NCBI GenBank assembly: GCA_964016885.1
Contig: OZ024741.1
Coordinates: forward strand, 99,448,001-99,512,000
From: Eledone cirrhosa
Lineage: Eukaryota
Length of the DNA stretch: 64,000 bases
Reading direction: 5' to 3'
Under the pieces are notes generated by a model. The model did no database searches. It was not told the origin of the DNA and worked only from the letters and a program-made list of their open reading frames with translations. A program made the translations under genes and the position numbers. Below, piece after piece: positions 4,498 to 45,459 of this stretch (its first letter is position 1; every line of letters begins with the position of its first letter).

Positions 4498-5195
4498 TAT
4501 AAACAACAATAAACAGGAAAAGTCAGTAATTTATTACTACCTTATTACCAGTAAGAGAAATAGCTCAATGTAAGAATATCAGGTGTTTTACAGAGCAGGA
4601 ATAACTAAAAACATTCAATACAAACATTAACTAAAATATAACTTAACATATGTAATGGATGGGAAATCAGTAACTTTCATATTCTACACACATACAAATT
4701 TGAACTCTACAGAAACTATCTTTGCATTACATCCTCCATAATAGGCTAACATATTCGCTTAAAGTGCTTGTATTTTATGTAATACCTTGCCATACAGTAT
4801 TCATATATACCTTTGCTTGTTTCCTTCTCATATATATGACTAATGCATGTGCATTCTCTACACTCTTGAATATGTACTTCATTCTCTTTAATTATTAGAC
4901 TATTCTCTTGTATTATCTGTCGCATGTATTCCACTCTGTGCTTTTAATTTTAATTTTAATTTTAATTATTGTACAATTCTCGTATAATATATGTCGCATC
5001 CATTCCACACTGTAAATACTAAACTGTTGTTCACAACATCAATATATATGTATCTATATGATTGTTCAGTTGAATAGGAGGTTAATTATATGTACAAACA
5101 TTGATAATGCTCCGATGATACCAAACTAAAGTTTGGAAGAAACAATTGTCAGCGATTAAATGATTTGAACATAACTTTGATACTTGTGTAATTTA
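4498..5195. mobile_element. Non-autonomous hammerhead-bearing element (homologous to 26050-27068)
   Basis: 4900-5195 matches 26675-26962. 4498-4600 is the reverse complement of 26963-27068. Carries the ribozyme motif at 5105-5158. Confidence 0.75.
5105..5158 (+). ncRNA. Minimal type-I hammerhead ribozyme motif (U4C core variant)
   Basis: taatGCT-CCGATGA-taCCAAAC taaa GTTTGGaa-GAAA-CAATTG-TC-AGCgatta: helix I, core, helix II hairpin, GAAA, palindromic helix III and a GUC cleavage triplet. Confidence 0.75.
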
Positions 5196-5664
5196 TATAT
5201 ATATATATGTGTGTGTGTGTGAAGCGTTTGGATGTAGAGTGGTGGTAGTGACTGTGGTGGTGGCGGTGTGAACGGTGGTGTTGGTAGTGGTTTTGAAAGT
5301 TGGGGCGTTAAGAAACGGGTTAAAGTTTGCTTTCAAAGATGAGAAATAGGGTGAAAAAATGAGAGGCGAAGAGCTGAATAAACGTCATGGGTCTTTCATC
5401 GGTTTCGATGATGAACATTCAGTTGTTTAATTCAATGAACGTCCGACTCGTGAACTAAAATGTGGTTGAGTATTCCATATACACGCATACCATCAACGAA
5501 AAATATGATACAGTAAACAACAACAACAAATATTAAATGCATTGCAGCACAAAATATCCAGTAGTAAAAAAAAAAGAAATAAATAAACAGTACACCGTAC
5601 GTGGCAATAAGAAAATGGGGAAAAAAAGAGGTAATTAAGCAACGAAAGAAAGGAAAAGAAGAAG

Positions 5665-5810
5665 GTGTGACAGGCTCTACACCTCAGTATTTCAGCTGCC
5701 CTGCGCTGATAAGATGGTAAAGATATTGCTGCTGAGAATGGCCAGTGACACCCGCTGTATCAGCCACTCACCTCACGGGGCTCCTTCCTCAAGCGGCCTG
5801 CTGCCTTTCT
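5665..5810 (-). mobile_element. 3' fragment of a CRE-like (RLE-encoding) non-LTR retrotransposon
   Basis: The minus strand encodes EWLIQRVSLAILSSNIFTIL, resembling the C-terminal QRxSxAxxxGN motif; homologous to 41560-41750. Confidence 0.55.
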
Positions 5811-6303
5811 AAAACAACAGTAACAACAGTAAAATCTAGTCCCTTGTATTTATAACATAAGGATGTTACCATAAATGTTAAGACGAACGGAACATTTAAA
5901 AACAATAACTGTCCTTGATATACAGCAAGACGGGAGGTAAAACTCATCGTTGGGCTGGAGGTGGAGAGGAGTAGTGAGGCGCTATGTAATTGATGAGCGT
6001 TCTATTGCTTTGTACTATTGACATCAGATTTGCCTAGAGGTGGGAGCCTAGAAGCATTGTAAAGAAACGAAGAAAGAGAGAGAGAGAAAAAGAAAGAAAC
6101 GAAGATAGAAAGAAAGAAAACAAACACGAAAAAGAAAGATGCCAATCGTCAGATGGGACCAAGGTAACCATATTTCCTCTGGTCTTTCTATTGCTGATAT
6201 TATCTGCCGGTCGCAACTCTGAGCAGAAGCATCACTGCTTTTCCGTTCACAGTAGGCAGGATTTAAATTCAGAATGCACAGAACCGGAACAGATACCGTA
6301 AAG

Positions 6304-6659
6304 CAGAACTTCTCAAACTTGTTTAGCCACCCCCACCCCCACCCCCTCATGGTCACGTAATACCTTCAACGCCCCCGCCCCCCTCACCCCTATTTCCAGA
6401 GAAACCTGCCTTCATGCAAATTGTAAATAATATATAATAAATAAAATCATTAATTCATATATAATAAATAATTTAATATATACTAAGTATAAATGAATAT
6501 ATATTTTTTTATTTTACTATAGTTATATATATGAATCATTTGATATTTAAAATACTATTATATCATCTCTACCGAACCCCCCCCCCACCGTCCCCTTTAG
6601 GCCCCAGTGCTCCCCAGGACCTTCTCAACGGGGGGTAGCGCCCACTTTGAGAACCTCTG
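6304..6659. mobile_element. hAT MITE inserted in a SINE A copy
   Basis: TIRs CAGAACTTCTCAAA / TTTGAGAACCTCTG; TSD CCGTAAAG / CCGAAAAG (7 of 8). Same family as 16319-17471. Confidence 0.85.
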
Positions 6660-41750: not shown

Positions 41751-44700
41751 AGGGTTAAGAGTGTGCCCTCTGTTCTCACCTTCCATTTTTTTCTTTTAGT
41801 GTTTTCTTTATCCCCCTTCTTTTCTCTTCTTTTCTTTCTTCATGTTTATTATTTAAATTTGTTATTGTATACTTTTGTTTGTTACTAAGGTAAGGAGTGA
41901 ATATAGATTACTTTTTTTTATAAATCATTTAGGTGTATATTTTTGATTCAGAAAGAACGTTATGTTTAAAAGAAATGTTGGCTGTCATGAAGATATGGAG
42001 TTTCATGTATAAGCCTTTCACATTATGTATGAAATAATCGGTGACCTTGTGTAGTTCACCACCATTTTGTTTAGTCTTCTTGATATACACTTCATACGTG
42101 ATGTGTATACTAGAAAATCTGTGGTTCGGTTCTATGGAAGGAAATTCAATCCTCGTTTATAAACATCCTCAGATTATGTACTTTTAAATGATACTCTATA
42201 TTGGTGTGCCTATATTATCTACAAGTATGAATATATGTTCACTTTATTCACTGCACACAGCGATTGTGTGTATGTTTGTGAGCTTTCGTTATACAAACAT
42301 GGTACATTAACAAATCAACAATCAAATCACATTAAAATAATATAGATTTTCACATGCATACACACACATAAACATAAACGTGTTTGTATATGTTTATGTG
42401 TGTTTTCTGCTAGAACACGGTGTATATTTGAAGAGTTTAAGGTAAATCTAATGTAGATATAACTAAAGTTTTTGAATTAGAAGCCTTTGCTGAAAAAAAG
42501 AATGAAATGCTTGGTGTAAACACTTTCAACTACTTCTTCGTAAACAGAAAAACATAAGAGATTACCCTGATACATTTCAGATTCCGCCATCGTAAGAGGT
42601 TAACTACCCCTATGATTCTGTGAATTAAGGAATGTACTCTGGAACTGCTATATGTCATACAGAATATAAAAGATAACTGAATTGGTCAGTTTTATTTACT
42701 TGGTGTGCAAAAGTTTGTCGACATAATTATATATATATATATTTTTAATATCCTAGAATACAGCGATTATTTAAAGATTTCAATGTAAACCTTAGATATA
42801 ACTAAATACCGTTTGGGAATTAGAAGCTTCTGTTATGAAATAAATGATGTGTGAAATACAATTTCGATAGAAATACCACGAACGATACTTTAATTTCATC
42901 TCCCTAATGTTTACGAAAAATTCTGGTATCTCACAAAAGATATATTCAATATATAAATAGATGAGTTATCATACTTTCTTTGTTTAACCCTTTTTATATC
43001 AACCTGCTCCAAACCGCCTTTCGTTTCAAGAAACAACACCTCTTACTTTAAAGAGTTCAAATTATAAATTAAATCTTTCAATGTAATTTAATATAAGAAA
43101 CTTTTGTCAAGTTATGGTAAAAATAACATCTAAATAATTGTTTCTACTTTAGACACAAAGAAAGCAATTTAAAGTGGAGAGGAAAGTCGATTAAATCGAC
43201 CCCAGTACTCACTGGTGCTTTATTTAATCGACCCCGTAAGGATGAAAGGCGAAGCTAACCTTGGTGGGATTTGTACTCAGAATACCATCTAAATAATGAA
43301 ATAACTAATAATGTTAGTATATACTCCCATATTATTAATTAAATATAGTACTGAGAACACATACAGATCTGTTGCATGGCAAACTAAGATACAAACAATA
43401 CAAGTGGATGCAGCCTTAGTCAATCATAGCGACTATCTTTTCCAGACAACTTAACCTCGTATTCTTCAAATACATGTACATAGCAACGAGTTTGCTTCTA
43501 TATAGTTGTTAGATATGTTAGAAATAACAACCAAATCTCCTTCAAATGACATTCCATAGTCTTACCAATTGAAAAGAGACATTGAATAATATAATCCGAG
43601 CTACACCATATCTGCAGAGAGAAAAAACCGGATATTCACAGCTGGAATATCTTTGATCATACGTCTGCTTTATCAGAAGTTGACCTGAGGTTAAACAATA
43701 ACAGCAGCAACAACAATTTACCCAAAATATATTAAGCCTGCAGCTGTAATATGCCTTGTACTAGTTTTGAATCATTTAATTACATAACAATTGCCTCCAT
43801 CTTAACTATAATTTATCGATATCATTATAAATCAACACTTCTGAAACACAGTCGATCACTATACGACAAAAATGTTTCATACTGACCACCATTGAAATCA
43901 TAAATAAGGCATTGTTCTCTTGGGCTTATCATAAAAGTAGAGCTTTCAGACTATACATCAACAAAGTGTCAATAAAACTATTTCCACGAATCTAATATAA
44001 AAGATCACCTTAAAAGAATTTCTCTGAAAGTACATTCCAGATTATTCACCGCGAATGGTGGTAGTTTTCTCCCGGCCACATCATGGTAGTACACGTAGAG
44101 TCCATTCTTATCGCAACTACGTAATCATAAGAATTCTCAGTTCATCCCCCCCCCCCCTCACCACCACCACCACAGACGTATGGCCGCATATAGAAATTAC
44201 GTCATTCTTGGCTTTCTTCTTTCACATATATCTCTTCTGACCACTTTCCAACTACGCTACACAATAAACAGCGTCACATACTTTCCCCCTTGATATATCA
44301 TGCTGGGGAAATATTCTTTAAAGAACACCTACAGAAGTATCGTAGACCTGTGTGCGTGTATGTGTATCTATTTATATGTATATATATATATATATATATA
44401 TATATATATATATATATATATATAAAGAGAGAGAGACGTATGTATATATATATATATATATATATATATATATATATACACACACACATATAGATATACA
44501 TATACATATAGATAAACGTATGTATATATGTATTTATATATATATATATATATATATATATATATATACACACACATACACACATATATATATATATATA
44601 TACACATACACATATATATATATATATATATATATATATATATATATATATATATATATATATATATATATATATATATATATATATATATATATATATA

Positions 44701-45019
44701 TATACATCCAAGGAGTGTAACGCGGAAGTACTCTAAATTCAGCCGGGTGAGCACTCCATGTTTAGGTTCACGTCGGTATATATATATATATATATATATA
44801 TATATATATATATATATATATATATATATTAGAAAATATATAGCTTTCACCGTATTTTTGACTAAAGGAATTTTAGCTTGATAACGGGGTTTAGAACCCT
44901 CAGATAAATGGAAAAAGATGAGTATTGACGTATATATATGTATATATATACGCATGTATATGTATGTATAAGAAAGAGGGTATGGTAAGATACCAAGTGG
45001 ACCATAACGTACCAGAGTA

Positions 45020-45345
45020 CTCAATGCAATACTTTCCATGTCCAGTCTGCGTTGGCTGGCCATTGATGTAGGAGGAAGTTCGTTGCTGCTGCTCTTAGGT
45101 TACCTTCATTCCACGCTGTGGGTTCATCTGGGATCCAGGATAGCAGAGTGTCAAGGTGTTTCTGGAAAATGTCCACGTCCACCCCATGCAGATCTCTCAA
45201 AATAGGGAGCGCACAGGACAAAGACAATAGGGAAAAAATAACAGAAAGTTGGACAGTCCCATCTCCTCAGTCGACCTCTGGAAATCACTACGGCTTCGCG
45301 ATAGTTAAGGTCGAAACGTTCATTCCAGTGCACATTGGGACATAA
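45020..45345 (-). mobile_element. 3' fragment of a CR1-like LINE
   Basis: ALPILRDLHGVDVDIFQKHLDTLLSWIPDEP...RAAATN, typical of a CR1-group ORF2 C-terminus. Confidence 0.7.
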
Positions 45346-45398
45346 CATAACAAGTATATATATATATAGTTATATAATAAACAACATAAGATAATTAT

Positions 45399-45459
45399 TT
45401 CATTTACCAATGGTTTCTTGAAAGCAGATGCTAGATCTGTTTTCAATCGTCAGAATGAA
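45399..45459 (-). ncRNA. Hammerhead ribozyme motif
   Basis: TTCATT-CTGACGA-TTGAAA aCAGAT ctagc ATCTGc TTTCAA-GAAA-CCAtTGG-TA-AATGAA. Confidence 0.82.

Follow-up and report, generated by a model that had tools for sequence, protein, structure and literature searches.

The window analysed here is a stretch of 64,000 nucleotides from the genome of the octopus Eledone cirrhosa (contig OZ024741.1, positions 99,448,001 to 99,512,000, forward strand), and our subject is the set of type I hammerhead ribozymes that it contains, together with the Penelope-like elements (PLEs) with which they are associated. The nine motifs claimed in the original prediction were all found, and a relaxed structure scan added two, at 21469(-) and 30580(+), for a total of 11. 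A strict scan recovered 7 of the nine, compared with a mean of 0.21 (maximum 2) in 100 dinucleotide shuffles of the window, and the relaxed total of 11 compares with a mean of 0.4 (maximum 2) in 40 shuffles, so that the motifs lie beyond chance in shuffled sequence, as predicted. Based on the conserved core, helices I-III and the NUH site, all 11 are identified as type I hammerheads; seven cores are canonical, three carry U4C and one carries U4A. The nine motifs represent seven insertions, since 24411/24532 and 26088/26873 are each the two arms of one inverted module. Penelope-type hammerheads with a palindromic helix III, in five families (here A to E), with (TA)n insertion and frequent inversion, were borne out, with two amendments: among the nine, the predicted core CUGANGA holds outside family A, whose three motifs read CCGAUGA (U4C), and helix III is tiny in each of the nine but has 4 bp and an 8-9 nt loop in the two additional motifs. 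The insertions, including two further families (W and F), are given below, with core coordinates running from C3 to H17 (ORF, open reading frame; RT, reverse transcriptase).

4502..5195 (+): family A, U4C core 5112-5150 within a 3' fragment (4602-5195) of a coding Hydra-type PLE; the family's own 3' tail lies inverted upstream of it (4502-4601).
21401..24261 (-): family W, 5'-truncated, broken Hydra-type PLE with RT at 24261-23224, an interrupted GIY-YIG region at about 23144-22560 and a 3' repeat from 21401 to about 21990.
21429..21469 (-): family W hammerhead variant, CAGAAGA core (U4A), 4-bp helix III.
24293..24490 (-): family B, tail-less palindrome arm inserted in a TA tract at W's truncated 5' end, core 24444-24416.
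24491..24745 (+): family B, tail-bearing arm, terminal repeat and tail of a 4.2-kb two-ORF Neptune-type PLE, core 24537-24565.
26050..26339 (-): family A, inverted truncated arm, U4C core 26134-26096.
26351..27065 (+): family A, direct arm, U4C core 26880-26918, tail 26966-27065.
30513..30639 (+): family F, short palindrome in TA, hammerhead at 30580(+).
30769..31075 (+): family C, long-helix-II core 30776-30878 in an older repeat (76-87% identity) that is the 3' portion of a longer element.
32582..32851 (-): family D, retrozyme-like, extended-helix-I core 32748-32715 in a copy that covers most of the self-tandem 315-nt monomer.
41059..41245 (-): family E, terminal repeat fragment and tail of a coding Hydra-type PLE, core 41210-41162.
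45369..45638 (-): family E, rearranged copy, a tail-less 3' fragment with core 45453-45405 and the tail inverted at 45568-45638.

The core was expected to be better conserved than its surroundings, and in the sampled copies of all six families its divergence stays below that of the flanks, with the clearest gaps in C (3.0 vs 10.1%) and D (0.9 vs 2.6%). The U4C change is fixed in family A (29 of 30 copies), as is U4A in family W (29/29 ribozyme-spanning copies among 58 examined). Helix II of the family C motif is 84 nt long and irregular, and a motif similar to that of family F recurs in one evenly spaced genome sample (L580). A partial hammerhead-like core at 28695(-), within an old inverted repeat (28073-29068; 67% identity), fails the structure scan.

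The density of motifs, which had been claimed to be high, is ordinary for this genome, because the relaxed scan of 20 evenly spaced 10-kb samples yielded 25 motifs, a rate of 8.0 per 64 kb (probability of 11 or more at a mean of 8, P = 0.18). Extrapolated to the genome (3.0 Gb, 1796 contigs), this amounts to ~370,000 motifs (Poisson range 240,000-550,000), a crude figure in that the hits are clustered, the sample is 200 kb and the shuffle control covered the window, not the samples. It is likely that the genome holds several hundred thousand hammerhead motifs. The same 200 kb of samples (L580-L596) contained at least 8 further hammerhead sequence types, many of them in opposite-strand pairs.

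The ORF at 21.4-24.3 kb, which had been proposed (as 21422-24261) to supply the proteins that mobilise the other families, belongs to none of families A-E and has its own ribozyme variant. Specifically, B adjoins this ORF solely at the window locus (1/30 B loci and 1/30 ORF loci), and the proposed role does not hold. Family W is abundant, with 117 scored genome matches at 94-100%, and its intact copies encode 709 aa with RT and, C-terminally, the GIY-YIG domain in a single ORF. The protein shows DKT, a CxCX5C linker, CxxC and CxH (no CCHH); a Pfam search with it returned nothing significant, and RT and GIY-YIG were assigned by their sequence motifs. Direct repeats flank the ORF on both sides of a 3.2-kb unit, and an intact U4A ribozyme lies ~180 nt upstream of the ATG in 10 of 30 W ORF loci. 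We rejected the possibility that W copies start at the ribozyme cut, as a direct upstream repeat is present. The 3' ends of 30 W copies were mostly short fragments that end at (TA)n or after a tail identical to the 5' untranslated region, and this shows that a coding PLE alone can yield short, inverted, TA-embedded ribozyme modules. A 139-bp tandem duplication within the W 3' repeat (21553-21831) was also seen in other W copies.

Families A and E are identified, from the protein motifs and their colinearity with the repeats, as 3' ends of coding Hydra-type PLEs. In family A, RT, GIY-YIG and repeat are colinear at two loci (L181 and L182) with broken coding regions, and 3 of the 6 longest copies shown continue upstream into endonuclease coding sequence; truncation is variable (24 of 30 copies anchored), and a tail of ~145 nt is present in 10 of the 24. 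An upstream walk across 30 family E loci found the ribozyme in place in 17 and PLE protein matches in 5, with a repeat-ORF-repeat arrangement at L293 and repeat-ORF at L295, both with Hydra motifs and with RT and endonuclease broken; the unit of one E copy is about 4.8 kb. The Hydra motifs (DKT, CxCX5C linker, CxxC and CxH) were read in both families, with a longer linker in the single A copy translated.

Family B could be followed to an intact coding element. Exact-pattern searches counted 939 tail-bearing and 1596 tail-less copies genome-wide, and 31-mers of the tail recur as direct pairs ~4.2 kb apart that enclose two ORFs (element length, 4202 bp). Among eight B regions, three had both ORFs intact between direct repeats, three were direct pairs with a broken ORF2 and two were inverted. 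In ORF2, which spans 775 aa from stop to stop, RVT_1 scores below and GIY-YIG above the curated cut-off; GxKF, DKG and YLDD are present, the linker is C-X4-CxxC and the nuclease is of CCHH type. Of 8000 candidates scored against it, 471 were homologs at E<=1e-50. ORF1 (449 aa) had 4 homologs among 8000 scored candidates and 147 scored genome matches, 26 of them at top score; Pfam yielded no significant family for it and an atlas search nothing at >=0.9. The B element is young and intact, and its motifs and their arrangement give it a Neptune/Nematis layout. It is likely that its two ORFs are joined by a programmed -1 frameshift, because the ~90-nt overlap (-1 frame; kept in 6/6 copies inspected) contains the slippery sequence T TTT TTA in frame, where it encodes His-Phe-Leu, IHFL stands at the same position in the three ORF1 homologs that reach the C-terminus (3/3), and the first Met of ORF2 falls within a conserved N-terminal motif. 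No stable pseudoknot-free structure was predicted downstream of the slippery site. An earlier view, in which B was an independent element of 200 bp with a sharp 5' limit, was abandoned when an unbiased pattern sample revealed the coding master, and locus L022 was rejected as that master, being a chance neighbour. Another PLE family, Neptune-like and with a hammerhead of its own following the nuclease, was observed at L190 (4250-6400).

The ends of the short B copies were examined in 159 arms, taken in genome order from one contig (70 tail-bearing minus one duplicate, and 90 tail-less). Upstream of the ribozyme, the full repeat has CCAAT boxes as well as a TATA box (position -104 relative to the cut site), and 61 of the 159 5' ends fall at -78..-64, ~30 nt below the TATA box, with 56 others beyond -300. 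The whole ribozyme is retained in 135 arms, and 7 of the 5' ends are within -3..+3 of the cut site, against an expectation of 1.4 (nominal p = 3e-4). The B solo copies are without the TATA box.

Family D forms head-to-tail dimers with a period of 315 nt at three loci (L109, L347 and L349), 12 of 57 loci have a tail that repeats the unit's own 5' start, its ribozyme has an extended helix I, and of five protein matches across the 57 loci none was clearly joined to the unit. As a 315-nt non-coding tandem unit (150-450 bp class) with a type I hammerhead, D likely fits the non-long-terminal-repeat (non-LTR) retrozymes. Family C showed no self-tandem arrangement in 50 oriented loci (of 60), and its shared sequence extends several hundred nt farther upstream. 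One of 17 long copies (L500) leads directly into a decayed homolog of B ORF1 and the start of an ORF2-like frame, and on account of this arrangement we slightly favour C being the repeat of an old coding element. An upstream walk from L494 reached an unrelated repeat, and the Neptune-like ORF of L190 was rejected as the source of C since that element has its own ribozyme. On the reverse strand of L500 (1670-2850), the C ribozyme, the decayed ORF1 homolog and the ORF2-like start in another frame could represent a second two-ORF family.

Taken together, seven of the nine motifs lie very probably in the ends of three coding PLE families (A, B and E), the short copies in (TA)n likely being incomplete insertions of these elements, which their own RT and GIY-YIG nuclease would have made from uncut RNA. 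Copies have two fixed 3' end points, with or without the tail, and the tail is the sequence that follows the upstream repeat. The short B copies in particular are likely by-products of coding elements, made from uncut RNA, because 61/159 begin near the predicted transcription start and 135/159 retain the ribozyme. In such a process, the GIY-YIG nuclease would nick TA-rich DNA at the target and reverse transcription would begin inside the RNA at the repeat/ORF junction, as it does in vitro for a lizard PLE. Where B RNA starts from the promoter within the repeat, just ~200-260 nt would be copyable, giving promoter-less solos with a fixed 5' end that would be dead on arrival for want of a TATA box. 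In A, E and W, copying would halt at variable points, often with a fold-back that leaves an inverted arm, while D may borrow its enzyme from one of these coding elements. The ribozymes would cleave no more than a minority of the transcripts, acting in dimeric form or assisted by protein. This would be consistent with the in vitro work on the lizard element (PMC11167929), which describes nicking in AT-rich sequence, two sites within the RNA at which reverse transcription begins and by which the tail is defined, a protein requirement for ribozyme cleavage, and uncut RNA as the main substrate.

Nonetheless, several points weigh against this reading and it needs to be interpreted with caution. The B transcription start is predicted from motif spacing only, and both arms of one insertion may count separately among the 159. 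Among the sampled copies of family A, none had the upstream repeat joined with the ORF's beginning. The samples of A, C, D, E and W copies were mostly best BLAST hits and hence biased, and in the young families the core-versus-flank differences amount to 1-16 changes, with CpG decay as a confounder. The excess of B ends near the cut site is a weak hint that some cut RNA is also copied, weak because several junctions (at least 3 of 7) are hairpin fold-backs at a palindromic AT site, where the position is ambiguous.

The fixed 5' end of B could instead be an RT stall, a template-switch hotspot or a product of recombination rather than a transcription start. Truncation is variable in A, E and W, and many B ends at -73 adjoin fold-back inversions, as such an origin would have it. 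We consider it unlikely, however, given that the pile-up lies ~30 nt downstream of a TATA box, itself preceded by CCAAT boxes, that 61 of the 103 ends downstream of -300 fall within 15 nt, and that the same pile-up is present in copies without an inversion. A lower probability attaches to obligatory ribozyme cleavage, which would make the 5' end or the circle of the transposing RNA and leave the short copies as products. The retention of cores in every family and the nominal excess of B ends at -3..+3 speak for a role of this kind, yet most B copies extend across the ribozyme, the seven ends include the fold-back junctions of ambiguous position, and ribozyme mutants did not impair insertion in vitro in the reported experiments (PMC11167929). 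Obligatory cleavage is thus improbable.

The original prediction had seen in all five families non-autonomous retrozymes moved in trans by a Penelope protein like the one at 21.4-24.3 kb. The copies are indeed mostly short, non-coding and TA-flanked, D (one motif) does behave in this way, and retrozymes have been described as PLE derivatives (bioRxiv 10.64898/2026.07.22.740005, as far as its accessible text goes). A, B and E, with seven of the nine motifs, are in contrast no non-coding self-tandem units: they are attached to their own ORFs as terminal pieces of coding elements, and their tails are not their own 5' starts. The proposal is refuted for these as families. A TATA box is missing from the B solos, and the repeat of the window ORF is another one; as a statement about all five families, the proposal is very improbable. 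Finally, chance matches in AT-rich repeat DNA can be dismissed almost entirely: single motifs fold no better than shuffles (z-scores of +0.35 to -1.75) and the Rfam hammerhead family was absent among the 150 of 206 window matches listed, which were mostly microsatellite matches to microRNA models, but the shuffle control refutes this origin and unrelated families share the core and helix pattern alone, each at the 3' end of its element.

The preferred account is incomplete insertion of coding PLEs from uncut RNA. B is young and intact and has at least 2,500 short copies, the ends of which preserve a record of the insertion process and provide in vivo support for the in vitro results on one lizard element. 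For short ribozyme-bearing repeats in general, a coding master should be sought before they are named non-autonomous retrozymes. More tentatively, and with somewhat less than even confidence in the whole, these observations may be joined: a genome with ~400,000 motifs, which would place its load among the densest known, in which an undescribed gag-pol-like B element (basic ORF1, -1 frameshift at a conserved slippery site, then RT and GIY-YIG) would be an active carrier whose promoter-initiated RNA gives rise to thousands of ribozyme-bearing solo repeats, and in which the fixation of U4 changes, normally damaging to the core, in two other successful families would point to tuning of the ribozyme or to protein dependence.

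Other repeats were also observed in the window. A truncated long interspersed nuclear element (LINE) of L1/Tx1 appearance at 34833-37944 (-) has a 352-aa ORF1 with a zinc knuckle followed by an AP-endonuclease frame (PF03372), and fragments at about 32850-34550 are presumably those of an RTE-type reverse transcriptase. A 5S ribosomal RNA match at 14734-14848 (-) (Rfam; 47.8 bits vs gathering threshold of 38) is either a 5S gene copy or a 5S-derived short interspersed nuclear element (SINE). A SINE-like family of ~200 bp has more than 10 window copies (20289-20485, 40326-40521, 8887-9076, 12052-12273 and others), a 69-bp tandem satellite occupies 63116-64000 (12.8 copies, 92% matches), and short palindromic repeats lie by TA tracts at 4053-4189 and 60215-60386, the first of which recurs beside many fetched copies. 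The output of a repeat finder on the window was dominated by (TA)n.

Hammerheads in such repeats have already been published, including those in an octopus Hydra element, Hydra-1_Obim of Octopus bimaculoides (PMC8557442 supplement); the families described here are new. The role of hammerheads in PLEs is stated to be unclear (PMC8557442), and Penelope families are listed for O. vulgaris without mention of ribozymes in the excerpts of PMC13282606. Minimal hammerheads from truncated PLEs occur by the thousands, mostly single and sometimes on opposite strands, with weak, dimer-dependent cleavage (PMC4209133). With regard to the core, U4C reportedly reduces in vitro activity but is sufficient in a viroid, and U4A is absent from the accessible text (PMC3088659). 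In the accessible literature (without subscription papers and Repbase), a two-ORF or frameshifted Neptune element was not described, nor were solo repeats arising from transcription starts, and no description of the octopus hammerhead load was found among the 15 of 51 matches listed. Excerpts of PMC5408684 mention esterases for Neptune-like PLEs, and a frameshifted ORF1, which may be that of Neptune, is named in the legend to Fig. 1 of PMC8557442. The two-ORF frameshift element B, the fixed U4C and U4A cores and the abundance are possibly new here.

Compared with known systems, and judged by sequence motifs, as is the Neptune/Nematis assignment, W, A and E share with the Hydra clade (PMC8557442) the RT and GIY-YIG domains, DKT, CxxC and CxH close to the end, insertion into (TA)n and a repeat that carries a hammerhead. 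The CxCX5C linker of the clade is exact in W and E and stretched in the A copy seen, and the helix III palindrome of Hydra-1_Obim nearly matches that of family E. Hydra-type direct terminal repeats with a hammerhead were seen on both sides in W and E and as the 3' copy alone in A. The families differ from the clade in the fixed U4C (A) and U4A (W) cores, in RWR instead of RWK and a 4-bp helix III in W, and in length (generally <3 kb in the clade vs 3.2 kb in W and about 4.8 kb in one E copy). B resembles Neptune/Nematis in GxKF, DKG, YLDD, the C-X4-CxxC linker of the CX2-5CxxC type, CxxC in the GIY-YIG domain with two later histidines, hammerhead repeats, an optional tail and (TA)n targets. 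Canonical nuclease-bearing PLEs are described with a single ORF, whereas B has a separate overlapping ORF1 and would thus be a Neptune-type variant rather than a canonical member; extra ORFs are known in Athena/Terminons and in two Chara Chlamys families. D is like the metazoan non-LTR retrozymes (PMC7229834; bioRxiv 10.64898/2026.07.22.740005) in its type I hammerhead, extended helix I, dimers and many monomers, but was seen without long arrays and has PLE-style tails, inversions and TA targeting. The window's hammerheads are also like the minimal ones of PLEs (PMC4209133) in a short helix I, an extra base after A9, a palindromic helix III and opposite-strand pairs 100-700 bp apart, and in that most stand singly and come from truncated PLEs. 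The estimated abundance in this genome (~2.4-5.5 x 10^5) far exceeds the 2,000-9,000 per genome reported in that study and lies above the 120,000 retrozymes of the axolotl, with descriptors that differ.

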